Of a stretch of 64,000 bases of DNA, positions 1,043 through 60,786 are shown one piece after another. Every line of letters starts with the position of its first letter. The first letter of the stretch is position 1. The notes beneath the pieces were generated by a model. That model ran no database searches, was not told where the DNA came from, and was given only the letters and a program-made list of their open reading frames with translations. Position numbers and translations under genes: made by a program. The stretch comes from Candidatus Velesiimonas alkalicola (GTDB lineage: Bacteria; Omnitrophota; Gorgyraeia; Velesiimonadales; Velesiimonadaceae), in the NCBI GenBank assembly GCA_013626165.1, contig NDHX01000004.1, positions 64,565 to 128,564 of the forward strand, given 5' to 3'.

Positions 1043-1123
1043 GATTACACAGATTAGTTTAGATTACACAGATAAAGATTGCTGTCGAAATCTGTGTAAT
1101 CGGATTTAAAAATCTGTGTAATC
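1043..1123. repeat. 80-bp palindromic 'GATTACACAGAT' element, copy 1 (2 direct + 2 inverted 12-mers)
   Basis: gattacacagat x2 then atctgtgtaatc x2; between dxr and rseP. Confidence 0.8.
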
Positions 1124-1167
1124 AATGCAATCCTTATTTTGTTTTCAATGCAGTATAGGAGAGAAAA

Positions 1168-3356: not shown

Positions 3357-3665
3357 AGTGCCCCCATTACCTTATGATAAGCGATTCGGATTGACACAGA
3401 TACGAGGGTTTGGTAGAATAGTGCCTGCCAATTAGGCGATAAAAAACTGGCGATAAGGCGACAAAAAAACATTTCAATATTCCGCAGACTGAGTTGGGTG
3501 AGTAAATGCTCAGTGAACACCGTTGTCATTGCGAGGGAACGAAAGGTGACCGAAGCAATCTCATGAGATTGCCACGTCGCTGTCGCTTCTCGCAATGACG
3601 GACTTAAGTGAATACTTACTCGGGTGATTTTTGAACTTTATAGAGGGAATGAAGGTAGGTAAGAT

Positions 3666-5149: not shown

Positions 5150-5158
5150 TTTAATTTT

Positions 5159-5237
5159 CGGGGCGTGGCTCAGCTTGGTTTAGAGCATCTGCTTTGGGAG
5201 CAGAGGGTCGGCCGTTCGAATCGGCCCGCCCCGACCA
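5159..5237 (+). tRNA. tRNA-Pro (anticodon TGG), CCA encoded
   Basis: cggggcgtggctcagcttgg...; anticodon loop tTTGGGa between stem tctgc/gcaga; T-arm ggtcggccgttcgaatcggcc; acceptor cggggcg/cgccccg. Confidence 0.85.
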
Positions 5238-5256
5238 GCAACGGACAAAGCTCGTC

Positions 5257-5333
<77 letters not shown>

Positions 5334-5375
5334 GAAAACAACAGTTCTGCTTTGCGGTAGGCAGAAACAAAAAAT

Positions 5376-5453
5376 GGTGGGTGTAGCTCAGTTGGATAGA
5401 GCACTGGACTGTGGCTCCTGTTGTCGCGGGTTCAAATCCCGTCACCCACCCCA
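5376..5453 (+). tRNA. tRNA-His (anticodon GTG) with genomically encoded G-1 and CCA
   Basis: Extra 5' G (ggtgggtg...) pairing with discriminator C, the His-specific hallmark; anticodon loop ctGTGgc; one mismatch in anticodon stem. Confidence 0.75.
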
Positions 5454-5464
5454 TTAAAAAGAAG

Positions 5465-5836
5465 ATGGCCAACCCTCTCAAACCTATAAAAGGAAGACCG
5501 ATGGATAGAAAGTCTGCAAGATTCAGTACCAGGCTACCCATACAGTATTATGTAAAAGGGGTGGTCTTGGATATTGGTTTTAAGGATGCGGTCACAACAG
5601 ATTTAAGTTCAACAGGGCTTTCTTTTGAAAACAACAAGCCTATCAGAGAAGGTTCTATTATTGAGATAAAAATTTTTATGCCCGGTTATAAAAAACCCAT
5701 ACAGGTAACAGGAAAAGTCATAAGGACCGATAGATATACCAATATGTTTGTTGTGGCGGTAGCTTTTGAAAAAATAAACCCTGTTGACAAGGAGAAGATA
5801 AATTTCTGGTACTATAAAGATACACTTAAATTATGA
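5465..5836 (+). CDS. PilZ-domain (c-di-GMP binding) protein
   Basis: RKSAR (RxxxR) and DLSSTGLSF (DxSxxG) PilZ motifs; the listed ORF start 5411 lies inside tRNA-His, so ATG at 5465 is preferred. Confidence 0.7.
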   Translation: MANPLKPIKGRPMDRKSARFSTRLPIQYYVKGVVLDIGFKDAVTTDLSSTGLSFENNKPIREGSIIEIKIFMPGYKKPIQVTGKVIRTDRYTNMFVVAVAFEKINPVDKEKINFWYYKDTLKL

Positions 5837-7203
5837 AAAAATATGATATTACAATAATCGGTGCCGGCCCTGGAGGATATATTGCAGCAATAAGAGCGAC
5901 ACAGCTTGGGGGGAGGGTTTGTGTTATAGAAAAAGAGCATTTAGGTGGAACCTGTCTTAACAGAGGATGTATCCCAACAAAAGCACTATTAAAAAGTGCA
6001 GAGTTATTTTATTACATACAGAATGCGGGCTCGTTGGGTATAAAGGTGCAGAATATAACCCCTGATGTCCCTTTAATATTTGAAAGAAAAGAAAAAATTA
6101 TCCAGCAATTAAGAAAAGGGATAGAATCTCTTTTAAAAGCAAAAAAGATAGATGTGATAAAAGGTGTGGGTAAGGTTGTATCTGCCTCACAGGTGCTTGT
6201 GAACGAAGAAGAAAAAATATCTTCTAAGTTTATAATTCTTGCAACGGGTTCCGAATCTTTGGCTTGCCCCGGCATTGAGACAGACGGTAAAAATATACTT
6301 ACAAGCACAGATATTTTAAATACCGCTTCAATACCAAAATCCCTTGTTATTATAGGAGGCGGTGTAATAGGTTGCGAGATGGCTTGCTTTTATTCACAGA
6401 TGGGATCAAAGGTTCATATGATTGAGATGACAGACAGGGCGCTTCCTACGGAGGATATTGAGGTATCAAAAACATTTCTTACTTTTTTGAAAAAAAGAAC
6501 TGTAGAGGTACATCTAAGTACAAAAGTGATTTCCGCCTCCGTTAAAAATAAAGATGAAACAATCGTTAATCTTGAAGGTGGGGACATAATAGCAGAAAAG
6601 GTTCTCGTATGCATAGGGAGAAGGCCCAATTCTGAAAATATAGGTATTGAAGAGATGGGAATTAAAACAGAAAAATCAGGACCGGTAGTTGATGAGTATA
6701 TGAGAACAAATGTTTCAACAATATTTGCAATAGGAGACCTTGCGGGGAAAAGGTATCTTGCTCATACCGCATCGATGGAAGGGATTGTTGCTGTTGAAAA
6801 TGCAGTGGGTAAGGATGGAAGGATGGATTATAGCGTTGTGCCTAACTGCATATTTACATTCCCTGAAATTTCAAGTGTAGGACTTACAGAAGAGCAGGCG
6901 ACTTCTTCGGGTATAGATGCAGAATCTTCAAAGTTTCCGTTTCAGGCACTCGGCAGAGCGGTTGCTTCTTCACAGACACAGGGTTTTGTTAAAATTGTAT
7001 TTGATAAAAAAACCAGAGAGGTTCTCGGTTGTCAGATTATAGGCCCTTGTGCAACAGAACTTATTGCCGAGGTCTCACTTGCAATCCGGATGCAGGCAAC
7101 TGTGAAAGATATTGCAAATACAATCCATGCCCATCCAACATTCTCAGAGGCAATTCAGGAAGCAGCATATGCAAGCCTTGAAGGCGCGCTACACCTGCCG
7201 TAA
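5833..7203 (+). CDS. lpdA: dihydrolipoyl dehydrogenase
   Basis: GAGPGGY FAD motif, redox-active CLNRGCIPTK disulfide, C-terminal HAHPTFSE interface motif. Confidence 0.9.
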   Translation: MKKYDITIIGAGPGGYIAAIRATQLGGRVCVIEKEHLGGTCLNRGCIPTKALLKSAELFYYIQNAGSLGIKVQNITPDVPLIFERKEKIIQQLRKGIESLLKAKKIDVIKGVGKVVSASQVLVNEEEKISSKFIILATGSESLACPGIETDGKNILTSTDILNTASIPKSLVIIGGGVIGCEMACFYSQMGSKVHMIEMTDRALPTEDIEVSKTFLTFLKKRTVEVHLSTKVISASVKNKDETIVNLEGGDIIAEKVLVCIGRRPNSENIGIEEMGIKTEKSGPVVDEYMRTNVSTIFAIGDLAGKRYLAHTASMEGIVAVENAVGKDGRMDYSVVPNCIFTFPEISSVGLTEEQATSSGIDAESSKFPFQALGRAVASSQTQGFVKIVFDKKTREVLGCQIIGPCATELIAEVSLAIRMQATVKDIANTIHAHPTFSEAIQEAAYASLEGALHLP

Positions 7204-7219
7204 CAGTGGTGAAGAGATT

Positions 7220-8668
7220 GTGGAAAATATTTTATTTGAAAAGAGGCTAAAAAAGACAGAAGCATTAAGACAAAAAGGTATCTCACCTTATTCAGGGGGG
7301 TTTAAGAAAAGTCTATCCTGTTGTGAAGCAGAGCAAAAATTTACTGAAGAATTACAGGTAAGCCTTGCAGGAAGACTTATGTCAGTAAGAGCCCATGGGA
7401 AAAGCGTATTTGCAGATATCAAGGATTTAACGGGCAGGATTCAGGTCTATGCAAAGATAGATATATTGGGCGAAAATGAATTTGAAACTTTTAAAGGTTT
7501 AGATATCGGAGATATTATAGGTGTAGAAGGAAAACTTTTTAAGACAAGAACAGGACAGGTTACGGTTGTTATAGAAAGGTTTAAGATTCTTTCAAAATCA
7601 TTGAAGGTATTGCCTGAAAAGTGGCATGGATTAAAAGATACTGAAATAAGATACAGACAGAGATTTCTTGATATTATAATGAATAATGAGGTTCGTTGCA
7701 TATTTGAAAAAAGGTCAAAAATAGTATCATCCATCAGGCAGTACTTGGAGAAACAAGGTTTTATTGAGGTTGAAACTCCTGTATTACAGAGCATACCCGG
7801 TGGTGCCATTGCAAAGCCGTTTATTACGCATCATAATGCACTCGGGACGGATCTATACCTAAGAATTGCACCCGAGCTATACTTAAAAAGACTTCTTATT
7901 GCAGGGTTTGAAAAAGTTTTTGAGATAGGTAAAAATTTCAGGAATGAAGGTATATCCACAAAGCATAATCCTGAGTTCACAATGCTTGAAGCGTATCAGG
8001 CATACTCTGATTATGGCGATATGATGAGTCTTTGTGAAGGTATTATAAAATTTGCTTCAAAAAATGTACTGGGGGCAGAAGAGATTGAATATGAAGGTAA
8101 AAAAATCATTTTATCAGGGCAATGGAAAAGATTAGATTTTTTTGATACATTAAACTGTGTTGCAGGAGAAGATTTATCTAAGAAAAAAGAACAAGAACTA
8201 AGAGAGGTTGCAAAAAAAATAAGGGTTGATGTATCACATACACTGACAAGGGCGAAGATATTAGACGAGCTTTTAAAAAAATGTGTGGGACCTACACTTA
8301 TTCAGCCTACATTTTTTGTGGACTATCCGGTAGAGCTTTCGCCTTTTGCTAAAAGAAAACAGGATAACCCTGTCCTTGTTGAGAGGTTCCAGTTGTTTAT
8401 AGGAGGGCTTGAGGTTGCAAATGCATTCTCTGAACTGAATGACCCGGTGGACCAGAAAAAAAGATTTGAGGAACAGATTCAGGCAAAAGAGAAAGGAGAC
8501 GCTGATGCGCATTTTATGGATGAGGATTTTATCAATGCCCTTGAGTATGGTATGCCGCCTGCAGGAGGACTTGGTATAGGAATTGATAGGCTTATTATGT
8601 TGCTCTGCGGAAAAGACTCTATAAGGGAGGTGATTCTTTTCCCGCAGTTAAAGAAACAAGAAATATGA
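7220..8668 (+). CDS. lysS: lysine--tRNA ligase (class II)
   Basis: Class II LysRS motifs (FRNEG, GGLGIGIDRLIML); ORF 7112 overlaps the lpdA 3' end; GTG at 7220, just after the lpdA stop, gives a canonical N-terminus (ENILFEKRLKKTEALRQKGISPY). Confidence 0.8.
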   Translation: MENILFEKRLKKTEALRQKGISPYSGGFKKSLSCCEAEQKFTEELQVSLAGRLMSVRAHGKSVFADIKDLTGRIQVYAKIDILGENEFETFKGLDIGDIIGVEGKLFKTRTGQVTVVIERFKILSKSLKVLPEKWHGLKDTEIRYRQRFLDIIMNNEVRCIFEKRSKIVSSIRQYLEKQGFIEVETPVLQSIPGGAIAKPFITHHNALGTDLYLRIAPELYLKRLLIAGFEKVFEIGKNFRNEGISTKHNPEFTMLEAYQAYSDYGDMMSLCEGIIKFASKNVLGAEEIEYEGKKIILSGQWKRLDFFDTLNCVAGEDLSKKKEQELREVAKKIRVDVSHTLTRAKILDELLKKCVGPTLIQPTFFVDYPVELSPFAKRKQDNPVLVERFQLFIGGLEVANAFSELNDPVDQKKRFEEQIQAKEKGDADAHFMDEDFINALEYGMPPAGGLGIGIDRLIMLLCGKDSIREVILFPQLKKQEI

Positions 8669-9846
8669 GATATGAGTACTGGATAAGTTACAGGTATCTA
8701 AAAGCAAAAAGACTTGAAAAATTTGTTTCTCTTATCAGTGTTTTTTCAATATTCGGTGTTGCCATAGGGGTAATGGCGTTGATAGTTGTAATAGGAGTGA
8801 TGCGGGGTTTTAGTACCGAATTAAAAAGAAAAATCATCGGGATGAATGCAAGCATAGTGGTAGAGAAACAGGGTGGTATTGAAGATTATGAGAAAATACT
8901 GGAAAAGATAAAAACTATAAAAGATGTTAAAGCCGCATCCCCATATATCATAGGTCAGGCAATGGTAAGGTCAAAGAATAAGGTACTGGGGTGTATCCTA
9001 AAAGGGATAAATATAGACACAGAAATAGAGGTAACAAAAATAAAAGATTATCTAAAACATGGCACACTTTATCTTTCATCCTGGAATGTTATAATCGGCG
9101 AACAGATGGCATCAGTGTTAGGTGTTACGGTTGGGGATCACATTACTATTATATCTCCTGCTGATGGTAGTGAATATGATGTTAAGGTTAGAGGAATATT
9201 TTCAAGCGGAATGTATGAATATGATATTGGTATAATGTTCATTGATATAAAAGATGCGCAAGAGTTTTTTATTACTGGCAATACAGTTTCAGGTATTAGC
9301 ATAAAGGTAGGTGATATATACAGAGCAGGAAAAGTAAAAACAGAAATAGAGCACAGGCTTGGTTTTCCATATTATGCAAGAACCTGGATAGAATCAAATA
9401 AGGCATTATTTTCAGCATTAAGGTTAGAAAGAATAACAATGTTTATCATACTTACACTTATGATAGTTGTTGCCTGTTTTGGTATATTAAGTACACTTAT
9501 TATGACTGTTATGGAAAAGGTTCGTGATATCGGGATACTTAAAGCAATAGGTGCGGCAAATGCTTCCATAAAACTCATATTTACATCCTACGGACTTTTT
9601 ATAGGGACAATTGGCACAGCCTTAGGTTCTTTATCCGGTATAGGTATGTGTCTTCTAATAAAAACAACAAATATTATCAAACTTCCGGGCGATATATACT
9701 ATTTTGAAAAATTACCAGTTCAGATGACTTTTCAAGATATTTTTTTGATAATAGTCTGTGCCTTAATGATAAGCTTTCTTGCAACGCTTTATCCGGCCCA
9801 TCAGGCAGCCCGGCTTAATCCTGTGGAAACACTAAGATATGAATAA
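8665..9846 (+). CDS. lolC: lipoprotein-releasing ABC transporter permease (LolC/LolE, FtsX family)
   Basis: 4-TM FtsX/MacB-type topology with large periplasmic loop; followed by lolD. Confidence 0.8.
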   Translation: MRYEYWISYRYLKAKRLEKFVSLISVFSIFGVAIGVMALIVVIGVMRGFSTELKRKIIGMNASIVVEKQGGIEDYEKILEKIKTIKDVKAASPYIIGQAMVRSKNKVLGCILKGINIDTEIEVTKIKDYLKHGTLYLSSWNVIIGEQMASVLGVTVGDHITIISPADGSEYDVKVRGIFSSGMYEYDIGIMFIDIKDAQEFFITGNTVSGISIKVGDIYRAGKVKTEIEHRLGFPYYARTWIESNKALFSALRLERITMFIILTLMIVVACFGILSTLIMTVMEKVRDIGILKAIGAANASIKLIFTSYGLFIGTIGTALGSLSGIGMCLLIKTTNIIKLPGDIYYFEKLPVQMTFQDIFLIIVCALMISFLATLYPAHQAARLNPVETLRYE

Positions 9847-26689: not shown

Positions 26690-29212
26690 ATGCAGAACGG
26701 TGATATTGTTATTATTGGTGCAAAACAGCATAACTTAAAAGATATATCTGTTAAGATTCCTAAAAATAAGTTTGTTGTTATAACGGGTGTTTCTGGTTCC
26801 GGAAAATCTTCCCTTGCCTTTGATACTATATATGCAGAAGGACAGAGAAGGTATGCACAGAGTCTTTCTACATATGCCAGACAGTTTATAGAACAGATTG
26901 AAAGACCAAATGTTGATTATATTTCAGGACTTTCTCCTTCTATTGCAATAGAACAGAGAACATCTTTCGGGGGTATCCGTTCAACTGTCGGCACACAATC
27001 CGGTATTTATGATTATGTAAGGCTTCTTTTTGCAAGAATAGGTACCCCTTATTGCCCTGAATGTAAAAAACCTATCACATTTCAAACACATCAGCACATA
27101 CTTGAAAAAATTTTAGAGGATTTTAAAAGTGAGCCCGTGTATGTTCTTTCCCCTGTGATAAGAGGTAGAAAAGGAGAACATGTCGCTTTATTAGAACAAT
27201 TAAGAATGCAGGGTTTTGCAAAGGTATTTGTAGACAGCAGTATAAAAGACCTTACCCCCATTCCAAAAATTGATAAAAAAAAGTTGCATAATATATCTGT
27301 TGTTGTTGACCAACTGACCGTAAATCCCGCATATACTTATATTGTCCAAAGGCTTTCGTCAAGTATTCAAACTGCAATCAGGTTATCAGAAGGACTTGTG
27401 AATATTGCATCCATTTCAGATATAAAAAATCAGACTGCATTCAGCCAGTTAAATGCTTGCCCTGGATGCGGTTTTAGTTTTCCCGAAATAGAGCCCAGAA
27501 CATTCTCATTTAATAGTTCTTATGGTGCCTGCAGAGCCTGTCAGGGGACCGGACTTACAATTGAGGAAGAGGTAAACAATGAACAAATAAAAGAATATAA
27601 GTTTTGTCCTGATTGTAAGGGTGCACGGCTTAAGTCGTCCGCTTTAAATATTTATGTGGGTGGAAAAAATATCAAAGAGATTTGTGAAGTATCGGTTGAA
27701 GAACTGTTAAAAACCCTTTCTCATATACAACTTGATAAAAGAGAGCGTCTGATAGGTTTTCAAATTATAAAAGAGATACAAAAAAGGCTTTCATTTTTGA
27801 AAGATGTGGGGCTGGGGTATCTAACACTGGGAAGAAATGGCACTACACTTGCAGGCGGAGAGGCACAGAGAATAAGGATTGCCTCACAGATAGGCTCCCA
27901 ACTTATAGGGGTTCTCTATATTCTTGATGAACCCAGTATAGGCCTTCACCACAGGGATAATAAGATGCTGTTAACTGCGCTGTCAAATCTAAGGGATATG
28001 GGCAATACTGTAATTGTTGTAGAACATGATGAAGATACAATGAGAAAGGCTGATTTTATTGTTGATTTAGGTTTTGGTGCGGGTATATATGGAGGAAATG
28101 TTGTTGCAACAGGTACGGCTGAACAGATAAAAATGGTTAAAGATTCCTTAACCGGACAGTATCTATCTGGTGCAAAAAAGATACCGATGCCTGAAAAAAG
28201 AAGAAGTTTTGATAAAACTATTACATTATCAGGTGCAACACACAATAATTTAAAGAATATAACCGCAAATTTTCCATTGAGTGTTTTTTGTTGTATAACC
28301 GGTGTATCCGGCAGTGGTAAAAGTTCACTTGTTATGGAAACACTATATCCTGCTGTTTGTCATAAATTAGGCTTAAAAAGAGGCACTGCTGGCAGATACA
28401 AAGAGATAAAAGGTTTTCAAGATATAGACAGGGTTCAAATCATAGACCAGAAACCGATAGGAAAAACACCCCGCTCAAATCCAGCCACATATACAGGACT
28501 TTTTACAGGTGTAAGAAATCTTTTCAGTCAATTGCCGGATTCAAGGGCAGGGGGATTTAAATCCGGGAGGTTTAGTTTTAATGTGAAAGGCGGAAGGTGC
28601 GAAGAATGCACAGGCAAAGGAGTAAAAAGAATTGGTATGCAATTCTTGCCCGATGTATATGTAACCTGTGATACCTGCAGAGGCACAAGATATAATGAAC
28701 AGACACTATGTGTAAGATTTAAGGGACTTTCAATAAGCGATGTATTAAATTTAACCGTTGATGAGGCAATAAATGTATTCTCTGCAATTCCCAGTATAAG
28801 GTTTAAACTTTCTATTTTAAAAAATGTTGGACTTGGATACATCCATCTGGGGCAGGGTGCCGCGACACTTTCAGGAGGAGAGGCGCAGAGACTAAAAATA
28901 TCTGCTGAATTGTCAAGAAAACAGACGGGCAGAACACTTATTATTATGGATGAACCGACCGTAGGGCTTCATTCTTATGATATACAAAGTCTGCTTGATA
29001 TTATAAACAGGCTCGTCTTAATGGGTAATACTGTTATAGTTATAGAGCATAATTTAGATGTGATAAAAGCAGCAGACTATATCATTGATCTTGGACCTGA
29101 ATCAGCAAATAAAGGAGGAAGTATAGTTGTTGAAGGAACACCTGAAGACGTGGTATTATGTAAAAATTCGTATACAGCAAAGGTGTTAAAGATACGGGAT
29201 GTTTTAAAATGA
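26690..29212 (+). CDS. uvrA: excinuclease ABC subunit A (shortened)
   Basis: Two ABC ATPase modules (GVSGSGKSSLAFDT; CITGVSGSGKSSL), LSGGEAQR signatures, zinc-finger cysteines; start set to ATG 26690 (MQNGDIVIIGAKQHNLK). Confidence 0.85.
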   Translation: MQNGDIVIIGAKQHNLKDISVKIPKNKFVVITGVSGSGKSSLAFDTIYAEGQRRYAQSLSTYARQFIEQIERPNVDYISGLSPSIAIEQRTSFGGIRSTVGTQSGIYDYVRLLFARIGTPYCPECKKPITFQTHQHILEKILEDFKSEPVYVLSPVIRGRKGEHVALLEQLRMQGFAKVFVDSSIKDLTPIPKIDKKKLHNISVVVDQLTVNPAYTYIVQRLSSSIQTAIRLSEGLVNIASISDIKNQTAFSQLNACPGCGFSFPEIEPRTFSFNSSYGACRACQGTGLTIEEEVNNEQIKEYKFCPDCKGARLKSSALNIYVGGKNIKEICEVSVEELLKTLSHIQLDKRERLIGFQIIKEIQKRLSFLKDVGLGYLTLGRNGTTLAGGEAQRIRIASQIGSQLIGVLYILDEPSIGLHHRDNKMLLTALSNLRDMGNTVIVVEHDEDTMRKADFIVDLGFGAGIYGGNVVATGTAEQIKMVKDSLTGQYLSGAKKIPMPEKRRSFDKTITLSGATHNNLKNITANFPLSVFCCITGVSGSGKSSLVMETLYPAVCHKLGLKRGTAGRYKEIKGFQDIDRVQIIDQKPIGKTPRSNPATYTGLFTGVRNLFSQLPDSRAGGFKSGRFSFNVKGGRCEECTGKGVKRIGMQFLPDVYVTCDTCRGTRYNEQTLCVRFKGLSISDVLNLTVDEAINVFSAIPSIRFKLSILKNVGLGYIHLGQGAATLSGGEAQRLKISAELSRKQTGRTLIIMDEPTVGLHSYDIQSLLDIINRLVLMGNTVIVIEHNLDVIKAADYIIDLGPESANKGGSIVVEGTPEDVVLCKNSYTAKVLKIRDVLK

Positions 29213-30174
29213 GAAAATTTGTTGATGTTGTAAAGATACACATATTTTCCGGAAAAGGCGGGGATGGGTGTAACAGTAGATACAGAGATAAATATTTAAG
29301 ACAGGGAAAACCTGATGGAGGAGACGGCGGAAAAGGCGGGGATGTTACACTTGTTGCAGATAGAAATGTTCAGACACTTCTTGACTTTCTTTTCCATAGC
29401 CAATACAGTGCAAAGAAGGGCTTAAATGGAGGAAGCAAAAACAAAAAAGGAAAAAACGGAGAGCCTCTGGTATTAAGGGTTCCGCAGGGCACCGTTGTAA
29501 AAGATGTGCAGACAAACGAAATTATAGCAGATATTATAGAAGAAGGGCAAGCCCTTACGGTTGCAGAAGGCGGAAGAGGGGGAACAGGGAACGCAAGGAT
29601 GAGATGTGCAACAAAAGGAGAACAAGGGGTTGAACGGTTTCTTATTCTTGAACTTCACTTAATAGCGGATATAGGAATTATTGGATTTCCAAATGCCGGT
29701 AAATCTTCTCTTATTTCAACATTAAGTAATGCAAAACCGAAGATTGCGGATTTTCCTTTTACTACACTGTCTCCTGTACTTGGGAAAATGGGATTCACAG
29801 ACCATTTGCAATTAACAATAGCAGAGATACCTGGCATTATTGAAGAAGCACACAAAGGAAAGGGATTGGGGCTTGATTTTTTAAGACATGCATTAAGAAC
29901 AAAAATGCTTGTCCACCTTCTTGATATAAGTGATAATCCGTTTGACCACTACTGTATTCTGAACAGAGAAATAAAACACTATGGCAAAGGGTTAGATAAA
30001 ATACCTCAAATAGCGGTTGCAAATAAAATGGATTTACAAAGATCAGAAGAAAATCTTAAAGTATTGAAAAAAAAGATAGCAGATGTTCTTCCAATTTCTT
30101 GTGTTACAGGAGAAGGAATTGAAGAACTGAAAAACAGAATAAAACAAGTCTATGAGAAAAAGATATCTTCATAA
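29209..30174 (+). CDS. obg: GTPase Obg/CgtA
   Basis: Glycine-rich Obg fold GGDGGKGGDV; G1 motif GFPNAGKSS. Confidence 0.85.
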   Translation: MRKFVDVVKIHIFSGKGGDGCNSRYRDKYLRQGKPDGGDGGKGGDVTLVADRNVQTLLDFLFHSQYSAKKGLNGGSKNKKGKNGEPLVLRVPQGTVVKDVQTNEIIADIIEEGQALTVAEGGRGGTGNARMRCATKGEQGVERFLILELHLIADIGIIGFPNAGKSSLISTLSNAKPKIADFPFTTLSPVLGKMGFTDHLQLTIAEIPGIIEEAHKGKGLGLDFLRHALRTKMLVHLLDISDNPFDHYCILNREIKHYGKGLDKIPQIAVANKMDLQRSEENLKVLKKKIADVLPISCVTGEGIEELKNRIKQVYEKKISS

Positions 30175-42384: not shown

Positions 42385-42506
42385 CAATAAAAGAAGTGCA
42401 AAATAAAACGAGAAAATAAAACTATTGAAGAAAGTTATGTCATTGTCGTACAAGTAGATTTCCGCACGGAGTTATTTAGGGTCTGCTGAAAAACTCATCA
42501 GACCCT

Positions 42507-42588
42507 GATTCCACAGATTAAAAAGCAGATTACACAGATTAAAACCCGATGACAAAATCGGTGTAATCTTTCAAAAATCTGTGTAATC
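42507..42588. repeat. 'GATTACACAGAT' element, copy 2
   Basis: Shares ...gtgtaatctttcaaaaatctgtgtaatca with copy 3; downstream of uvrB. Confidence 0.8.
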
Positions 42589-43120
42589 AGGGCTTACTGA
42601 AAAATTTACATCTGTCAAAAGTGCAAGGTTTTTACATAAAAAGAACAAAAAATCGTGCACTTTTAGCGCTATTTTTGTGGTTTAAATCGCTTAATTTCCG
42701 TCGTAGTATCCAAATTTTTAGCATTTTTCAGTAAGCCCTATTTATTAAGTTAGAAAAGAAACAATGCTTATTGTGGCGGTAATGTATCTTGACAGAAATT
42801 TTCAGTTACCATTGGCGGCAAATGTCAGATGGCAGCAGGTGAGATCTTACGCTCCTTTATCTTTTGGAGCTATAGCTATTTCCAAAAGAAGTTAGATGCG
42901 GATGAAGTATTTAGGTTAGCTATGCCAAAGAACAAACAGCTTAGGTTAAACTATGCTGTTACAGGGTAAAAAGACTAAATTTGCCAAAGTTTAGCTGTAC
43001 ATTAAGTTCGTATAATATGCAACAAAAGGTCGATATTATACATTCAATTCGTATAGAAACGAGTTATATGAAATTGCTTTTAATTTGAGAATTATAAAAT
43101 AAAATTGGAGGAATGGAAAA

Positions 43121-43315
43121 ATGGACGTGAAAGAATTAATCGCCAAGGAGATAGAAAATGTTCCTGAGCCCTATCTCATGGAGATACTGGATTTTATCCG
43201 ATTTTTAGAGACTAAGGCTTTGGAACAAAAGATGGAACTTGCATTAGCAAGTGAAGCGTCTCTTAAAAAAGATTGGCTGAAGCCTGAGGAGGATGAAGCA
43301 TGGAAAGATTTGTAA
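43121..43315 (+). CDS. DUF2281-like antitoxin
   Basis: 64 aa, EILDFIRFLETK motif, overlaps downstream toxin gene by 16 nt. Confidence 0.6.
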   Translation: MDVKELIAKEIENVPEPYLMEILDFIRFLETKALEQKMELALASEASLKKDWLKPEEDEAWKDL

Positions 43316-43632
43316 AAGGGGATGTAGTAGTCGTTCCTTTCCCTTTCTCAGATTTAACCCGAGCTAAAAGACGACCGGCTTTGGTAATCGCAGAGTTAGA
43401 AGGTAATGATCTGATTCTTTGCCAGATAACCAGTCAGTCTATTAGAGACAGATACGCAGTTTTAATTGACAAGAATGATTTTGAAACCGGGACGCTTAGG
43501 CGAAAAAGTAATGTGCGACCTAACCGCATATTCACAGCAGATCGTCACATCATCCTGTATCGAGTTGGTCATCTTAAACCTAAAAAGATCGATCAGATAA
43601 TTGAGAGGATAGTATCTATCCTTCGGCAATAA
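43300..43632 (+). CDS. MazF/PemK-family type II toxin endoribonuclease
   Basis: GDVVVVPFPFSDLTRAKRRPALVI PemK/MazF signature. Confidence 0.75.
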   Translation: MERFVKGDVVVVPFPFSDLTRAKRRPALVIAELEGNDLILCQITSQSIRDRYAVLIDKNDFETGTLRRKSNVRPNRIFTADRHIILYRVGHLKPKKIDQIIERIVSILRQ

Positions 43633-43645
43633 ATATGCAACTTCC

Positions 43646-43740
43646 GATAACAGAGCGTATCTGGCTTCGGCTTACGCCTCCGCCCAAATCCCCCTTCGGA
43701 GAACTTCAGATACGCTCGAAACGTTATATGAAATGGCGGT
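43646..43740 (+). repeat. attC-like palindrome 1 (ATAACA-GAGCGTATCTG...CAGATACGCTC-GAAAC-GTTATAT, plus right arm ATGAAATGGCGGT)
   Basis: Begins 14 bp after the toxin stop; inner 11-bp inverted boxes; unequal spacers (1 nt vs 5 nt) next to the AAC/GTT ends. Confidence 0.55.
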
Positions 43741-43746
43741 TCCAAA

Positions 43747-44904
43747 ATGAATGAAGAAAGGAAAACCATGAAAACAAATAATACCCGACAATTAACATTA
43801 GAAAGTTTAGAGGCTATTCCGCTTACTTATGGTTCAATTATTCTAAATAAAGAGATGTTTATTCAAGTTTTGGTTGAGACTAAAACTCTACAGGATTTAA
43901 TTTCTCTTAAGAACAAACTAATTGTATTAAAAGATATTATAACTAATCATAAAAAGGACCAAGAAGGCATATTAAATATTGACGCTAATGGAGATACGGT
44001 CTCCTTACGCAGAGATGTTCTAACTTCTGAATTAAATCAAATCCTTGAGTCGCAAACAGTTGAAAGAGCTAAGTACTATTTAAAAAGATTGGAAAATGGA
44101 GTCCAAAAAGTTAAGACAAGTAAAATCAACGACATAAATCTTTTAAGGTGGAAAGAATATGATGATATTATTACCGATAGCCTTTGGGTATTAGATAAGA
44201 GGGATACTTCAGGTGTCCATCTTGGTTGGTATTGGGGAAATTTCATCCCACAGATTCCGCATCAGACCCTGATAAGATATACCAAAAAAGGAGATTGGGT
44301 TTTAGATGCATTTGTGGGAAGTGGAACGACCTTGATTGAGTGCCGAAGATTGGGTAGAAACGGAATAGGAATAGAATTAAACCAAGAAGTGGCACGAGAA
44401 GCAAAGAAATTGATTGAAAAGGAACAAAATAAAGATAATGTAGTTAGTGAAGTAATAATTGGGGACAGTAGGACGATGAATATAGAAGAAATTTTGACAA
44501 AGCACAAAATTAATCAAGTTCAACTTCTTATTATGCATCCTCCGTACCATAATATTATTAAGTTTTCAAAAGATGAAAAAGACCTTTCGAACGCAAAAAA
44601 TACTGAAGAATTTTTGAAAATGTTTGGGGAGGTGATAAATAATGCAACTCCATACTTAGAAAAAGAGCGGTACTTTGCTTTAGTTATTGGCGATAAGTAT
44701 TCTAAAGGTGAATGGATACCTTTAGGATTTTATTGTATGAATGAAGTATTAAAAAGAGGCTATTTATTAAAAAGTATAATTGTTAAAAACTTTGAAGAAA
44801 CGCGAGGCAAGAGAAATCAACAAGAACTTTGGAGATATAGGGCGTTAGTAGGTGGATTTTATATTTTTAAGCATGAATATATAATGTTATTTAAGAAAAA
44901 ATAG
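43747..44904 (+). CDS. DNA methyltransferase (N6-adenine/N4-cytosine type)
   Basis: FIPQIPHQT (motif X-like), VLDAFVGSGTT (motif I), IMHPPY (motif IV) about 65 aa apart; better RBS before ATG 43768. Confidence 0.75.
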   Translation: MNEERKTMKTNNTRQLTLESLEAIPLTYGSIILNKEMFIQVLVETKTLQDLISLKNKLIVLKDIITNHKKDQEGILNIDANGDTVSLRRDVLTSELNQILESQTVERAKYYLKRLENGVQKVKTSKINDINLLRWKEYDDIITDSLWVLDKRDTSGVHLGWYWGNFIPQIPHQTLIRYTKKGDWVLDAFVGSGTTLIECRRLGRNGIGIELNQEVAREAKKLIEKEQNKDNVVSEVIIGDSRTMNIEEILTKHKINQVQLLIMHPPYHNIIKFSKDEKDLSNAKNTEEFLKMFGEVINNATPYLEKERYFALVIGDKYSKGEWIPLGFYCMNEVLKRGYLLKSIIVKNFEETRGKRNQQELWRYRALVGGFYIFKHEYIMLFKKK

Positions 44905-44915
44905 GAGATAAAACT

Positions 44916-45749
44916 ATGCCATTATTAAGTCAAAAAGAAGTCTTAAATTTAAAACTCAGTTGTATTCCTTTACCGCAGTTAAAACTACCTGCTCTAAACT
45001 TAGGAATAAACAATACAGGTTCAGCAACAGAGATTATTAAAAGAGTTTTGGATAAAGGGGTAGACGAAAAAGTAATACAGAGATTCATAAAACAAAAATA
45101 TAATGAAAGAATCCAGGAACGGAGGGAGGTTATTTCTGATGAGGACTTAAAAAAAGAATTGTTAAAAGTCCAAACCTTTTCTTGGGGCGTGGTTCAAGGG
45201 CAGTTAGATCAGAAAATACAGGCTGAATATGTGAGAAGAATTGTAAGATATGAAGACCTGCTAAATAATGTCAGGGCGAAACTTCACGAAGATGTGACTA
45301 AATATGTAATTTGTACTTGGTTTAATCATTGGACAACTGTGTTAATAGAAGAACATATAAGCACTCACAAGAGGGTGATCCCCACTATTAAAAATATAAA
45401 AGGAATTGATATTTTCTTTGATGGACAGCCATTTGACTTAAAAGTGACCTACCTTCCTCGTGAATATAATCCCTCTGATGCTATAAAAAATCCTACTGAT
45501 TTAGCTGTCTGGCTATATGAAAATCAGGGTGCTCAAAGATTTGGGGCTGACAATCGGTTATTTGTTGTATTGTTGGATAAAGATAACACTGAAAGAAGTT
45601 GGGAATTAAAAAGAGATTTTACTTTAGTATTCCAAAAGATTGATAATTTCTTTGATAGAGAGACGGTGTCAAAGAAAGACGAGATTGTTTTCACTTTTGG
45701 CAGAAAAACATATACAGCAGTTACAAAGGTTTTGATAATAACAAAATGA
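44916..45749 (+). CDS. putative restriction endonuclease partner (PD-(D/E)xK-like)
   Basis: Immediately downstream of the MTase (12-bp gap, RBS ggag); candidate catalytic pattern EEH...GIDIFFDGQPFDLK (D-x9-DLK). Confidence 0.45.
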   Translation: MPLLSQKEVLNLKLSCIPLPQLKLPALNLGINNTGSATEIIKRVLDKGVDEKVIQRFIKQKYNERIQERREVISDEDLKKELLKVQTFSWGVVQGQLDQKIQAEYVRRIVRYEDLLNNVRAKLHEDVTKYVICTWFNHWTTVLIEEHISTHKRVIPTIKNIKGIDIFFDGQPFDLKVTYLPREYNPSDAIKNPTDLAVWLYENQGAQRFGADNRLFVVLLDKDNTERSWELKRDFTLVFQKIDNFFDRETVSKKDEIVFTFGRKTYTAVTKVLIITK

Positions 45750-45750
45750 G

Positions 45751-45869
45751 ACCGCCACTTCATATAACACAGCATAAAAGGTTCGTGCCTTCGGCACTCA
45801 CCCAAATCCTTCGCTATCGCTCAGGACTTCTTTTATGCTGGAAACGTTATATGAAATTCGGCTTGGCGG
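45751..45869 (+). repeat. attC-like palindrome 2 (arms ACCGCCACTTCAT / ATGAAATTCGGCTTGGCGG; ATAACA-CAGCATAAAAG...CTTTTATGCTG-GAAAC-GTTATAT)
   Basis: Same ends and central ttcgtgccttcggcac...cccaaat segment as sites 1 and 3, with a different but perfectly complementary inner 11-bp box pair. Confidence 0.55.
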
Positions 45870-45914
45870 ACGGATAACAAAATTAATGAAAACAAAAACA
45901 TATAGGTGGATGTG

Positions 45915-47327
45915 ATGAAAACGCTTTACGAGGCAAAACAAGAAACTTTGTTTGGGGAAAGGACCATCGAGCAAAAATACTTAGAATTAATCAATAACGA
46001 GCATAACATCTCTAAAGGAGTTGAAGTTTTAGATAAAATTGATTGGGACTTTAAAGATTTTACGACTCAGTATCTTACACATACGTTTCATTCTTACCCC
46101 GCAAGGTTTATACCTCAAATACCTCTGACTTTCATCAAATTATTTACAAAAGAGAAAGAAACTGTCTTAGACCCAATGTGCGGTTGTGGAACAACATTGG
46201 TAGAGGCTTTTTTAAATAATCGAAATTCTATTGGGAATGACTTTAACCCACTTGCAACCCTAATAACCAAAGTAAAAACCACTCTAATTGATGAAAACGA
46301 GTTCAGATATTTTAATAAAAAATTGGCAGTTATGAAGCGATATTTAGATTTGGATTATAGAAGAGTTGATGAAAGAATTAATAATCTGCCTAACAGAAAG
46401 GTAAGCAAGATATTCAACAGGGTTGTAATCTCAAAATTAGAAAGCATCCGTGAAACTCTATTAGAGGTAAAAGAAGAAGGACATAATGACTTATTTGATT
46501 TTGGAAGAGTTGCTTTATCATCAACAATATGGTCATTGGTAGAAAATGGTAATGGAATTGATGTTGATGATGTGTTTCTGAAAAAAGTAAAATCTATGCA
46601 GAATGACCTAAATAGGATGGCTAAGATTATTAGGACTGTTCCGGTTGTAAGAGTAATTTGTGGCGATGCAAGAAAATTAGAGGTTGAAACAGCCTCAATA
46701 AACTTAATAGTAACTTCTCCTCCTTATGTAAATGCGTTGGATTATTATAGAGCCCATATGTATAACATGCTTTGGCTTGGAATGGATTTTGACTTGTTTA
46801 GAAAACATGAGATCGGTGGGCATTCCCATTTCATTATCAATAGATTTAGACTACTTTCAGAATATTTAGGTGATATGCTCCGTTCAATGATAGAGATGAA
46901 TAGAGTTTTGAAAAAAGATAAAACATGCGTAATTGTAGTAGGGAACTCCAGTTTGGAGTATGAACTGATTGAAAGTCATAATTTTTTTGCAGAAATGGGT
47001 GAAAAGATAGGATTTAAGCCAATAAAAACAATTTTTAGGAATATTGATAAAACAAGGAAATACACAAGTGCAGATATAGGGAAAATTGATGATGAATATA
47101 TCCTTGTAATGCAAAAGGTAGATGATACCAATATTTCTGCAGATGATGATAATTTTGTTTCCGATGTTGTGCAAGAGCAGATGTTAGGATTTAAAGAGCA
47201 AATAAAGAAATGTCAAGGCACTTCCATTAGGAGTAGAAAACCAACAAATGAGAGACTATTGAAGAATGTTGATAAGATTAGTGAGGCAATAGAAACGATA
47301 TCTGAAGACACAAAAATAAAGAGGTAA
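45915..47327 (+). CDS. DNA methyltransferase (N6-adenine/N4-cytosine type), paralog of 43747
   Basis: HSYPARFIPQIP (motif X-like), VLDPMCGCGTT (motif I), IVTSPPY (motif IV) about 170 aa apart; RBS aggtgga before ATG 45915. Confidence 0.75.
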   Translation: MKTLYEAKQETLFGERTIEQKYLELINNEHNISKGVEVLDKIDWDFKDFTTQYLTHTFHSYPARFIPQIPLTFIKLFTKEKETVLDPMCGCGTTLVEAFLNNRNSIGNDFNPLATLITKVKTTLIDENEFRYFNKKLAVMKRYLDLDYRRVDERINNLPNRKVSKIFNRVVISKLESIRETLLEVKEEGHNDLFDFGRVALSSTIWSLVENGNGIDVDDVFLKKVKSMQNDLNRMAKIIRTVPVVRVICGDARKLEVETASINLIVTSPPYVNALDYYRAHMYNMLWLGMDFDLFRKHEIGGHSHFIINRFRLLSEYLGDMLRSMIEMNRVLKKDKTCVIVVGNSSLEYELIESHNFFAEMGEKIGFKPIKTIFRNIDKTRKYTSADIGKIDDEYILVMQKVDDTNISADDDNFVSDVVQEQMLGFKEQIKKCQGTSIRSRKPTNERLLKNVDKISEAIETISEDTKIKR

Positions 47328-47332
47328 GAAAC

Positions 47333-48307
47333 ATGAAAGAATTTATTAGCAAAATAATATACTCAATTCTCACAGGGCAAGATTATAGGGCCTATGTTCT
47401 TGCTACAATAAATAAAAGATTCATTGATAAAGCGCAAGAACTGATTTCCGAAGTGTTTGAGCACAAACGAAGAGGTGATAATTGGCTTGAAAAACTTTTA
47501 GAAGACACTTTCAAAAAGAAGGGGAAAGAGAACAAATTTAAACTTCTGTGGTTTGGCGGTTTAAATGATAAGACTGTAAAGAATATGACAGGCGGGACAT
47601 CTACAAAGGAAGTATGTTTGGATTTAGGTAGGAAGAACATAGAAGCATTGAAAATATTGCTAAAAGAATTTGATAGTAGTGAGAACTTATATCAACTCAG
47701 AATAATAATCCGGAAAGGTAAAGAACAAGTTGAATTAGACGAAGTTGAAAGTATATTTTTCGTTAATATTATCTCAGCAATGAAACTAACAATTCAAGGA
47801 GGAGCTTGGAGTGAAGTGGGAAAGAAAACCGAAAAAGGTTTACTCTTTGTGATATTTCGATTACTGAAAATTCCAGAAGATAACTATATTTTAACAACTG
47901 CGGAAATGAAGAAAAAAGGACTGGTTGAGAACAGAGAAATCGATGCCATAGTTTTCAGTAAGAACAAAGAGCCTCTAACTATTGAGTTAAAACTACTTGG
48001 AATCGGAAATCCCGAAATAGGTGACGAGGCACTTGCCAGAAAAGTAAGTTTATTTCTGATAGATAGGTTGACAGAGATGATGAAGGAAGAATCTGAAAAA
48101 ATAGGAATTAAAGTAATTGAATTTAGACAAGAAAATTCTCTAATGGAGATGTACAAGTTTTTCAAATCGAAAAATGTGAGTTGTAGTCCGCCCGAAAAAA
48201 TGACACCAAACGAATTAGAAGACGAAATAAATGGAATAATGAAAGAGTGGAGAGAAGAATCAGAAGATTTAGCTGTAATTAAAAAATTAAGGGAGTGGAC
48301 AAAATGA
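47333..48307 (+). CDS. putative restriction endonuclease partner (PD-(D/E)xK-like)
   Basis: 5 bp after the MTase stop; candidate motif EIDAIVFSKNKEPLTIELK (D-x13-ELK). Confidence 0.45.
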   Translation: MKEFISKIIYSILTGQDYRAYVLATINKRFIDKAQELISEVFEHKRRGDNWLEKLLEDTFKKKGKENKFKLLWFGGLNDKTVKNMTGGTSTKEVCLDLGRKNIEALKILLKEFDSSENLYQLRIIIRKGKEQVELDEVESIFFVNIISAMKLTIQGGAWSEVGKKTEKGLLFVIFRLLKIPEDNYILTTAEMKKKGLVENREIDAIVFSKNKEPLTIELKLLGIGNPEIGDEALARKVSLFLIDRLTEMMKEESEKIGIKVIEFRQENSLMEMYKFFKSKNVSCSPPEKMTPNELEDEINGIMKEWREESEDLAVIKKLREWTK

Positions 48308-48309
48308 TT

Positions 48310-48459
48310 ACCGCCAAGCCGAATCTTGCGGAAACCTTCGGTTTCCTTGCCTCGCCTTCGGCTCGGTCATATAACAGAGCGTATCTGGCTTCGTGCCTTC
48401 GGCACTCTGCCCAAATTGCTCGCTTCGCTCGCAACTTCAGATACGCTCAACCGTTATAC
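48310..48459 (+). repeat. attC-like palindrome 3 (left arm ACCGCCAAGCCGAAT, 45-bp insert, ATAACA-GAGCGTATCTG...CAGATACGCTC-AACC-GTTATAC)
   Basis: Core boxes identical to site 1; no conserved right arm beyond GTTATAC, consistent with being the last site of the array. Confidence 0.55.
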
Positions 48460-48829
48460 GCAATAATTTTTAAAAGTTAAAGAAACGACCCAAAAATTTT
48501 TTGTGAGATTTTTTAGGCAAACGGGCAAAAATTCCTGGTGGGGATGACACTCAAACCCCCTTCCTTTTTGCCCGCCTGCTTTCCGCCGAAGGCGGAATGG
48601 GGTGGAAAAGCGTTTCCGCAATTCCTGCGTCAGCAGGAAGGCAAAACAGAAAAATTTTCTTTTCCTTATTTGAAAAATAGTGGCGAGTGATTAAAAAACC
48701 TATTCCCTTGCAAAAATAACAGTCAAAAAAGGACCAACAGCAAGAATGTACTTATCAAACCTTTTAAGAGAAACAAAAAAACAACAAACAGAAAAATATC
48801 CAGAATAGAACTAATAATTCTCCCTTCCC

Positions 48830-54495: not shown

Positions 54496-54619
54496 TTTTT
54501 ATAATATTAGGTCGTTGAAAAAGTTATCAACGGTCCTGATTGCACCAATTTTAAAAAACGAGGACACAGATAACATCGTCGGAACTTAACCTGTGTACTC
54601 TTGTTTTTAATCTGTATAA

Positions 54620-55474
54620 TCAAAAATTGTGAGGGGATTTTTCAACAACCTCAATATATGAAGATAGTGCATCTGCCCATCTCCGTAATTTAAGCCCTAT
54701 TTTTTGAAGATAAATGCTTTTTGATGCAACAGACATCCCTCTGTCTGCCGGAAGATTAAAAAAAGATGATAAAACAGGTATAACCTTAACATCAGAATGG
54801 AGTATCTTAACTATCTGTTTTGCCATTTCATATCTTGAACATATACCATCGTTGGTTATATGATAAATTCCGAATCTGTCGGTTTTAATCAAGGCTCTTA
54901 TTGCTTCTACCAAATCAAATGTATATGTGGGGCTCCCCCTTAAATCATCAACAGCTTTTATTGTTTTTTCTCCTTTTTTTATCTGTGAAACAATTTTACC
55001 TACAAACTTTTTATCTTTTGTCCCTCCTCCAAAAAGCCAGCAGGTTCTTACAATATAAAACCTTTCAAGCATAGACCGAATTATCTTTTCACCTTCAATC
55101 TTTGTCTTACCATAAAAATTTACAGGGTTAGGAATATCTTCTTCGGTATAAAATTCTTTCTTACCGTCAAACACCTCTGTTGTGCTTATAAAGACAGGTA
55201 TTGTATTATATTTTTTACAGGCAATAGCAATATTTTCTGTTCCTTGTATGTTGTATCTTCTTGCCAACCCCTGTTCTTTTTCGCATCTGTCAACATCGGT
55301 CATTGCCGCAAGATGAATAACAAAATCGGGTTTTATTTTTTCAAAAACATCCCGCACATTTTTTTTATCTGTAATATCTAGGCTTTTTCTGTCCGTGGGG
55401 AAAATCTCGCCCTTATCAAAAATAACAGAACAATAACTTCCAACCACACCCTGTGAACCGGTTATAAGTATCAT
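54620..55474 (-). CDS. rmlD: dTDP-4-dehydrorhamnose reductase
   Basis: Short-chain reductase with YGKTK catalytic motif; context with rmlABC. Confidence 0.65.
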   Translation of the reverse strand: MILITGSQGVVGSYCSVIFDKGEIFPTDRKSLDITDKKNVRDVFEKIKPDFVIHLAAMTDVDRCEKEQGLARRYNIQGTENIAIACKKYNTIPVFISTTEVFDGKKEFYTEEDIPNPVNFYGKTKIEGEKIIRSMLERFYIVRTCWLFGGGTKDKKFVGKIVSQIKKGEKTIKAVDDLRGSPTYTFDLVEAIRALIKTDRFGIYHITNDGICSRYEMAKQIVKILHSDVKVIPVLSSFFNLPADRGMSVASKSIYLQKIGLKLRRWADALSSYIEVVEKSPHNF

Positions 55475-60552: not shown

Positions 60553-60647
60553 AGAAGATAATTTTTTAATGTAAAAGTTAGAAATATCTAACATAGTTAT
60601 ATATCTAAAACAAATAGGGCTTCACAAAATTCGTTTAAGCCCTATTG

Positions 60648-60728
60648 ATTACATTGATTAAAATTCAGATTACACAGATTAAATGCCGTCGAGACCATCT
60701 GTGTAATCTTTCAAAAATCTGTGTAATC
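60648..60728. repeat. 'GATTACACAGAT' element, copy 3, flanked by 15-bp inverted repeats agggcttcacaaaat / attttgtgaagggct
   Basis: Between dtxR-family gene and feoA. Confidence 0.8.
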
Positions 60729-60786
60729 AACAGCCCTGAGCTAATTTTGTGAAGGGCTGTCTAAAACAAATGAAAGGAGGGGTAAA

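Follow-up and report, generated by a model that had tools for sequence, protein, structure and literature searches.

A probable orphan cassette array of an integron-like recombination system in Candidatus Velesiimonas alkalicola

Introduction

The closest known relatives of the locus considered here are sedentary chromosomal integrons and clusters of attC sites lacking integron-integrases (CALINs) (Cury et al. 2016, PMC4889954; for archaea, Ghaly et al. 2022, PMC9668308). CALINs are common, and surveys with models of the integrase IntI and of attC have placed integrons in about 1% of archaeal genomes (PMC9668308). Here we analyze a 64,000-nt stretch of the Candidatus Velesiimonas alkalicola contig NDHX01000004.1 (positions 64,565 to 128,564; hereafter the window), in which three gene units, a toxin-antitoxin (TA) module and two methyltransferase/nuclease-type pairs, are each closed by an imperfect palindrome of about 85-91 nt, all in the same orientation (sites S1-S3, Table 1). 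The locus is very probably an orphan, integrase-less cassette array that belongs to an integron-like site-specific recombination system, one that is unlike canonical integrons in both its site and its integrase. Such an array would explain the presence of a TA module and two restriction-modification (R-M) systems between uvrB and a glycosyltransferase gene.

What defines an integron is IntI, whose extra domain reads extrahelical bases, together with attC; the system represented in the window appears to follow the same logic, with sites that are built differently and an integrase from which the defining domain is missing. We propose, with moderate confidence, that it is part of an undescribed and very widespread second integron-like lineage, spanning Patescibacteria, other uncultivated phyla, Archaea, and viruses, with sites free of extrahelical bases, an IntI relative without the IntI domain, and an attI of its own, and that integron finders have overlooked it. 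This lineage could be the ancestral state or a sister lineage of canonical integrons. We found no prior description of this class of site or recombinase in the open-access literature, most subscription journals being outside the search. If the proposal is true, cassette-based gene capture reaches candidate phyla radiation bacteria, DPANN and other archaea, and phages; the two lineages would offer a natural comparison for the origin of the IntI extra domain and of extrahelical-base recognition, and the sharing of defense cassettes across domains would become traceable.

Site design and strand preference

S1-S3 have a common layout, ATAAC-A-(11-nt box)-...CCCAAAT...ACTTC-(complementary box)-GAAAC/AACC-GTTATAY, in which S1 and S3 have the box GAGCGTATCTG and S2 has CAGCATAAAAG. 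A first-pass annotation, made from the sequence alone, had described palindromes of this architecture at these three places, with S1 and S3 sharing boxes and S2 having a different but self-complementary pair, and our analysis bears this out. The 18-mer shared by the window sites never arose in shuffled sequence. The terminal AAC and GTT are near-invariant across the wider family of such sites (142-147 of 149), and in a seed alignment 8 of 11 box pairs had changed on both sides. Overall, 89% of box cells were paired, against 22-39% when the partner was slid, and none of 500 shuffles reached the observed score. The 11-bp L stem is a clean helix without extrahelical bases. The unequal spacers at its base (1 nt on one side, 4-5 nt on the other), which had been remarked on in the first-pass annotation, are real and produce an asymmetric internal loop when the sites are folded.

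The folded form shows a consistent preference for the bottom strand. At the base of hairpin 2, one pair is an A.C mismatch when read on the top strand (145 of 149 sites) and G.T on the bottom strand. Mismatches that are tolerable only as wobbles number 286 on the bottom strand versus 56 on the top, or 141 versus 56 once this invariant pair is left out. Folding with DNA parameters gave a more stable bottom strand in 211 of 229 sites (mean -17.7 versus -15.1 kcal/mol; Wilcoxon p 4e-36), including S1 (-16.6 versus -15.0), S2 (-19.4 versus -14.8), and S3 (-20.8 versus -16.6 kcal/mol). Because the genes lie on the top strand, the folded form is not that of the mRNA, and it is most simply read as folded, single-stranded bottom-strand DNA. 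The sites would presumably serve as single-stranded substrates for recombination.

Apart from these regularities, a small number of box types turned up repeatedly in bacteria and archaea that are unrelated to one another. In an alignment of 150 sites from L041-L120, the box of S2 was found 8 times, GCGGATAAAAG 7 times, the box of S1 and S3 6 times, and AGGGATATACG 6 times. The box center is nearly always TA.

A site family across bacteria, archaea, and viruses

To place the window sites among others, a loose pattern derived from S1-S3 was run on IMG/VR, and a tighter pattern on a collection of species-representative genomes. The loose pattern matched 26 contigs, of which about nine were obvious relatives with different, self-complementary boxes. 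Five others (L017, L019, L020, L024, and L035) matched through an unrelated conserved phage stretch (...AAAAGGCATCCCAAATTCCTAAATGGCCTG...GACTTCTAGGATTAGAGATGCCCGTTATA...), and about 10 further matches were due to chance. The tighter pattern matched at least 120 genome blocks from metagenome-assembled genomes (MAGs) of bacteria and archaea. A covariance model (R1) seeded with S1-S3 and six sites from viral contigs then located 165 + 72 sites in the 120 blocks, every one of which was positive, and also matched viral contigs. As the window sites were inside the R1 seed, we built a separate sequence profile to which only other genomes contributed (150 sites). This profile scored S1 at 61.1 bits (E 2.6e-17), S2 at 56.1 bits, and S3 at 54.3 bits (E from 3e-17 to 3e-15), placing the window sites in the family.

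Among the matches listed, the bacterial hosts include Patescibacteria, Omnitrophota, WOR-3, Atribacteria, Caldiserica, Spirochaetia, Dehalococcoidia, and others, and the archaeal hosts Methanophagales (ANME-1), Altiarchaeales, Bathyarchaeota, Aenigmatarchaeota, Heimdallarchaeota, and others. All 71 loci with at least two sites carried them on a single strand, with a median spacing of 856 nt (interquartile range 560-1507), and 94.5% of the open reading frame (ORF) residues between sites were encoded on the top strand of the site. A sample of 145 ORFs from between family sites matched 134 Pfam families, among them S-adenosylmethionine-dependent and DNA methyltransferases, NUDIX, GNAT, GmrSD, TIR, and PIN. 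In cargo and make-up these arrays are those of integron cassettes. The window conforms to the same architecture: S1-S3 are spaced 2.1 and 2.6 kb apart with every gene on the plus strand, which is the arrangement of a CALIN (at least two co-oriented sites, less than 4 kb apart, no integrase nearby), and a fourth, simpler site precedes cassette 1. The first-pass annotation had named copies scattered outside cassettes as what would speak against an array; there were none among the 71 multi-site loci, and the window contains no copy of the motif beyond S1-S3.

Some arrays reside in viral contigs from IMG/VR (L021 1624-3744, minus strand; L033 3494-5613, minus strand; L034 9573-10505, plus strand). 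That of L021 is unusually dense, with about 10 family sites at only 150-400 nt spacing. The genes beside the viral arrays are phage-like and encode DnaB, an amidase, a PD-(D/E)XK nuclease, an IstB-like loader, and a LAGLIDADG/intein-bearing protein of 776 aa.

Linked recombinase and attI

One type of tyrosine recombinase was present in 10 of the 120 genome blocks, and in L072, L073, and L042 its gene lies directly upstream of the first site in divergent orientation. These array-linked recombinases belong to NCBIfam NF040815 ('site-specific tyrosine recombinase/integron integrase'), scoring 226-238 bits against a cut-off of 220. The integron-integrase model TIGR02249 matched them in two stretches at 215-233 bits, below its cut-off of 265. 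Their closest solved relative is VchIntIA (PDB 2a3v, E 7e-43), to which the alignment is split: IntI4 residues 178-240 face only 20 residues, so that about 43 are absent, which indicates that the IntI-specific domain is missing from the array-linked enzyme.

The association between this recombinase and the sites is tight. We scanned metagenome contigs with an alignment of the recombinase and searched the 80 best loci with R1. Recombinases at least 45% identical to the L072 protein occurred at 20 of these loci, and 15 of the 20 had sites, in all 15 cases upstream of the recombinase gene and on the opposite strand; at the other five, the available upstream sequence is shorter than 900 nt. None of the 80 best loci had a site where identity to the L072 protein fell below about 40%. 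More than 6,000 proteins match the recombinase at E <=1e-30 under the source names XerD, integrase, or 'integron integrase', which, together with the 120 positive genome blocks, gives a measure of how abundant this version of the system is.

The recombinase genes are accompanied by a conserved attI-type sequence. Its core, TTCGTATAGAAACGAGTTAT, recurs with one to five mismatches on the upstream side of the recombinase gene, 90-142 nt from its start and facing away from it, in 10 of the 12 closest recombinase loci (L161, L162, L164-L167, and L169-L172) and in L072. The corresponding region of the window, immediately before cassette 1, aligns with the region beside the recombinase gene in L162 (86% identity over 78 nt), L161 (80.5%), and L169 (77%), and the aligned regions contain two direct copies and one inverted copy of a TTCGTATA-like motif. 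Recombinase, attI, and array are linked in these relatives, and from its similarity to them the window region is the attI-type site of related recombinase-bearing elements. An attI-like junction had been suspected here in the first-pass annotation; its role agrees with the attI conserved in recombinase-bearing relatives, and only the position needs correcting, as GTTATATGAAAT is at 43063-43074 and not at 43083.

A second recombinase subtype was noticed within the same NCBIfam family, characterized by an N-terminal extension (FPYN..I..IK.I.G.RWH...K.W) and found in L098 (6326-7138, minus strand), L112 (148-1194), L096 (3960-4787), L115 (5203-7602), and L185 (10001-10804). Its genes lie within arrays or run in the same direction as them, and some are placed between two sites in the manner of a cassette.

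Cassettes as probable circular units and their exchange

If a circular cassette is inserted by crossover inside the R' arm, its start and its own end are expected to retain complementarity as a trace of that event. An 18-nt stretch at the start of cassette 2 is 94% complementary to one at its own end, and a 14-nt stretch at the start of cassette 3 is complementary at 14 of 14 positions to one near its own end (Table 1). Both pairings had been pointed out in the first-pass annotation, and they extend family-wide. Comparing pairs beyond the 12 conserved bases GTTATAYGMAAT, we found a complementarity score of at least 10 between the cassette start and the stretch before its own site in 28 of 111 cases (25%), versus 3.5% for the two flanks of one site and 3.5% for random pairs.

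The window cassettes recur as units in other arrays. The TA cassette is present in metagenome array L182 (8748-9425) at 88.5% nucleotide identity, with homology that begins at the G of GTT in the upstream site (window 43063) and stops just past S1, and the site upstream of it in L182 is a different, full-length one. Cassette 3 recurs whole between two sites of an array in the Atribacteria MAG contig L098 (172-2560, minus strand), at 87% nucleotide and 87-89% amino acid identity, so that this CfrBI R-M cassette is shared between a candidate-phylum NPL-UPA2 bacterium and an Atribacteria MAG. The pairing between the start and end of the cassette is kept in L098 despite two changes, both of which give G.T on the bottom strand alone. 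Homologs of the cassette 2 methyltransferase occur in the arrays L102 (63% amino acid identity) and L182, and homologs of its 277-aa partner in L106 and L063. Where homology blocks between arrays end, at least 24 do so 5-11 nt past the G of the downstream R'. Cassettes have turned over at the predicted insertion point between L244 and L246, which are syntenic from attI through the recombinase gene and five further genes at 65-82% identity and carry unrelated cassettes beyond attI.

We also considered whether a site travels with the genes downstream of it, since L098 has the same box in its site upstream of cassette 3. This idea was set aside because unrelated genomes have a few box types in common, the majority of homology blocks run through the R' of the downstream site before ending, and the TA-cassette homology starts at the upstream GTT.

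Two hairpin features were noticed in these cassettes. In L098 (reverse complement), a 43-nt hairpin at about 325-368 separates the second box of an S2-like site from its GTT. The first of the two small hairpins that precede S3 in the window is kept in L098 via compensatory changes (GGAAACC/GGTTTCC versus GGTTGC/GCAACC).

Proposed mechanism

We propose that each site of about 90 nt closes a cassette, which in the window would comprise the TA module, a methyltransferase with a presumed restriction endonuclease, and a methyltransferase with the CfrBI restriction endonuclease. The bottom strand is predicted to fold into a terminal stem, ATAAC/GTTAT, followed by the 1 x 4-5-nt asymmetric loop, an 11-bp stem that is free in sequence so long as it is complementary, and a small three-way junction in which ATTTGGG and GAAGT are conserved. 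In complete relatives, the IntI-related tyrosine recombinase without the IntI-specific domain, encoded divergently at about 100 nt from the attI-type site, presumably catalyzes strand exchange at or near G|TT of the R' arm. Circles would enter at attI, and excision between sites would also be possible; the junction of a circular cassette is predicted, for example, to read ...ATAAC-(S3 body)-AACCG joined to TTATATGAAATTCGGCTTGGCGG. The window has kept an attI and three cassettes and would have lost the recombinase gene, leaving an array that could be moved only by a recombinase acting in trans.

Comparison with canonical integrons and other known systems

The resemblance to integrons is extensive. 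Both systems have co-oriented, mostly promoterless cassettes that each end in an AAC...GTT imperfect palindrome folded on the bottom strand and begin with the distal half of the R' arm; both have a divergent integrase gene beside attI and cargo rich in TA modules, R-M systems, GNAT, NUDIX, and methyltransferases; and integrase-less arrays are common in both. The differences concern the site and the enzyme. The family site lacks extrahelical bases in the L stem and has a 1 x 4-5-nt asymmetric spacer, its interior forms a conserved three-way junction (CCCAAAT/ACTTC), and its R stem reaches up to about 18-24 bp. The family attI has its own conserved sequence, and the recombinase of complete relatives is without the domain that defines IntI. 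The first-pass reading of an attC-like, integron-like array therefore stands as regards co-oriented family arrays, the bottom-strand fold, and the attI, but the sites are not canonical attC and the linked recombinase is not a canonical IntI.

As a proxy for the classical attC model we used one built from nine archaeal attCs (Ghaly et al., PMC9668308, data S9) and attCaadA7 (R2), which is not IntegronFinder's own model. R2 returned nothing at E <=10 in 251 kb that contain more than 100 family sites, and with filters off it scored S3 at 9.1 bits and S2 at 8.7 bits (E about 1, equal to random matches), with S1 unlisted. At the same search size it scored the independent attC of dfrA1, from a class 1 integron, at 23.2 bits (E 8e-5). 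R1, in turn, gave classical attCs only 11-14 bits.

In the VchIntIA-VCR (Vibrio cholerae repeat) structure that MacDonald and coworkers described in 2006, the extra domain of IntI is reported to bind the extrahelical bases. The lack of extrahelical bases in the family sites fits a recombinase without that domain. VchIntIA/IntI4 is the best match of the array-linked recombinases on both sides of the insertion, and they share an IntI-like ...SPL end, the difference being the missing residues. Archaeal XerA (PDB 4a8e and 5hxy) falls in NF040815, the cut-off of which the array-linked recombinases pass; it serves a single dif site, whereas here there are multi-site cassette arrays and an attI. Small gene modules bounded by recombination sites and served by a simple Xer-like tyrosine recombinase are also found in pdif modules and integrative mobile elements exploiting Xer (IMEX). 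In pdif modules these are double-stranded XerC/XerD sites of 28 bp whose orientation alternates, in contrast to the sites described here, which are folded, about 90 nt long, placed in a single orientation, and endowed with covarying stems.

Alternative explanations

The array could be an ordinary CALIN. In that case the clustered sites would be canonical attCs, acted on by a canonical IntI that has the extra domain and whose gene lies in another part of the genome. CALINs are common (PMC9668308), and both the orientation of the sites relative to the ORFs and their bottom-strand bias are as in integrons. The core sequences agree reasonably well: (T)ATAAC fits RYYYAAC, and GTTATAY fits GTTRRRY with a deviation at one R position, some family members read ATCTAAC, and an archaeal attC tested by Ghaly et al. 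reads GTATAAC...GTTATAC (PMC9668308, data S9). We nevertheless regard this explanation as unlikely, as R2 detects the dfrA1 attC and leaves S2 and S3 at noise, and as the 11-bp L stem without extrahelical bases, the central 1 x 4-5-nt spacer, the conserved interior (CCCAAAT, ACTTC), and the tightly array-linked recombinase without the IntI-specific domain all depart from the canonical design. One family member does lie near a true IntI-type gene. On the Heimdallarchaeota contig L052 (NJBF01000069.1), a gene of this type with the extra domain, apparently disrupted near its 3' end, occupies 2-1309, and a family site (4412-4514, 31 bits by R1) follows 3 kb downstream. Ghaly et al. (PMC9668308) list this contig as In0, an IntI without attC. 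None of 12 other archaeal accession prefixes from family loci is a contig accession in their tables, from which those genomes may have been filtered for other reasons.

We find it very improbable that the sites act at the RNA level or are generic repeats (repetitive extragenic palindromic [REP] or bacterial interspersed mosaic element [BIME]-like sequences, mRNA-stabilizing hairpins, terminators, or RNase III sites). Such a role would suit elements placed 3' of gene units and, in phage-like contigs, between short genes, and it would suit the C(UUCG)G-type loops of the sense strand, a classic stable RNA motif. Against this, Rfam 15 has no match in the region at gathering thresholds or at E <=10, S1-S3 have no T-run and none resembles a terminator, the wobbles and energies favor the antisense strand and not the mRNA, the pairing partner of a cassette start is the cassette's own end, at a distance of 2 kb, and not a local flank, and the sites are strictly linked to a recombinase gene and an attI. 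A promoter and terminator scan was uninformative (28 promoter-like sites versus 22 expected) and called none of S1-S3 a terminator. Dispersal in the manner of REP, BIME, or miniature inverted-repeat transposable elements (MITEs) is contradicted by the confinement of the three copies in 64 kb to the array, by their compensatory differences, and by the uniform orientation within each array. Less probable still is that the sites are ends or targets of another single-stranded DNA mobile element, such as an IS200/IS605-type element, a REP-associated tyrosine transposase (RAYT)/REP system, or a MITE inserted in an ATAAC|GTTAT palindrome. The folded bottom strand would be the relevant form for these elements too, removal of the site body leaves the perfect palindrome ATAACGTTAT, AAC+1 is the exact end point of some homology blocks, as though the body were a separate insert, and a few body types recur in unrelated genomes. 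In the arrays examined, though, we noticed no HUH or TnpA-type gene, and the recurrent neighbor is a tyrosine recombinase; moreover, the stems vary by compensatory change where near-identical copies would be expected, and the arrays are strictly co-oriented with the genes.

Several observations weigh against an orphan cassette array of an integron-like system. No recombinase gene was found anywhere in the 64-kb window, as the first-pass annotation had already noted. All contigs that carry the window cassettes were colinear, with no rearranged variant or recombination event among them (exact-protein look-ups), so that the array looks static in the available metagenomes. Ten homology-block ends, about a quarter, fall one base past the R'' AAC, which suggests that site bodies are sometimes exchanged independently of the flanking genes, or are not co-inherited with the upstream gene, and the recurrence of a few box types across phyla complicates any inference of linkage. 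Part of the energy advantage of the bottom strand is owed to loop parameters (GAA versus TTC loops), and the putative cleavage point is placed from sequence boundaries only.

Organization and context of the window array

The features of the locus are collected in Table 1. Its gene content is as the first-pass annotation had proposed, a MazF-family TA pair and two methyltransferase/nuclease-type pairs by Pfam, with the 277-aa protein of cassette 2 matching no family, and all six array ORFs are intact. The last site had been thought to lack its right arm; S3 has its R' arm, GTTATAC, and only the extended GGCGG arm is missing. The array is flanked by topA and uvrB on one side and, on the other, by a gene for a PMT-type glycosyltransferase on the opposite strand (Pfam).

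Table 1. Features of the cassette array (window coordinates)
Feature	Position	Strand	Remarks
attI-type region	42998..43075	+	Core 43048-43067 (sequence in text); G of putative crossover GTT at 43063
Cassette 1, TA module with its own site S1	43064..43723	+	Pfam
DUF2281-type antitoxin (cassette 1)	43121-43315	+	Pfam
PemK/MazF toxin (cassette 1)	43300-43632	+	Pfam
Site S1	43647..43729	+	R'' ATAAC 43647-43651; box 43653-43663; complementary box 43707-43717; spacer GAAAC; R' GTTATAT 43723-43729
Cassette 2, with site S2	43724..45846	+	Methyltransferase and 277-aa protein
Cassette 2 start	43723..43740	+	Complementary to own end, 45751-45768
N6/N4 DNA methyltransferase (cassette 2)	43747-44904	+	Pfam N6_N4 methyltransferase
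277-aa protein, presumed endonuclease (cassette 2)	44916-45749	+	No family match
Site S2	45764..45852	+	Box CAGCATAAAAG 45770-45780; G of GTT at 45846
Cassette 3, with two extra small hairpins (48330-48366) and site S3	45847..48453	+	Methyltransferase and CfrBI endonuclease
Cassette 3 start, ATTCGGCTTGGCGG	45856..45869	+	Complementary to 48311-48324, near own end
N6/N4 DNA methyltransferase (cassette 3)	45906-47327	+	Pfam
CfrBI-family restriction endonuclease (cassette 3)	47333-48307	+	Pfam RE_CfrBI, E 3e-108
Site S3, last of the array	48371..48459	+	Box as in S1; G of GTT at 48453

Nothing remains beside the window attI of the promoter region of about 90 nt and the recombinase gene seen in relatives. 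Searches by tblastn with six array-linked recombinases detected no remnant in the whole window, nor in the spacer 42385-43075 with or without the MITE-like insert described below, and 42385-43120 has no ORF of 60 aa or more, in agreement with the first-pass annotation. A weak match of the recombinase search at 29209-30174 proved to be the Obg GTPase.

The window cassettes and uvrB are present in the metagenomes BBPD-BBPG and in MAG GCA_003574845.1, which a preprint calls 'NPL-UPA2 bacterium Unc8', from serpentinizing springs (10.1101/2025.09.26.678891); the exact-protein look-up of the PMT protein gave no record. Many metagenome contigs end inside sites or at the GTT of attI, as repeats would cause them to do. 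The MAG contig L010 (NDHY01000004.1) matches the window only from 40203 onward. Upstream of the match, its positions 1-9765 hold different genes (purK, pyruvate:ferredoxin oxidoreductase subunits, and others) and, of topA, no more than a 73-aa zinc-ribbon fragment, which indicates a rearrangement or a chimeric assembly.

The spacer upstream of attI contains a MITE-like insert of 260 nt (42479-42738), with terminal inverted repeats at 42584-42605 and 42723-42744 among others. It is missing from the otherwise identical L010, and several metagenome contigs break at its edge. Partial copies, corresponding to positions 28-111 of the insert, are found in the window at 60646-60729, 1042-1124, and 54535-54622, and another in L012 at 1933-2004.

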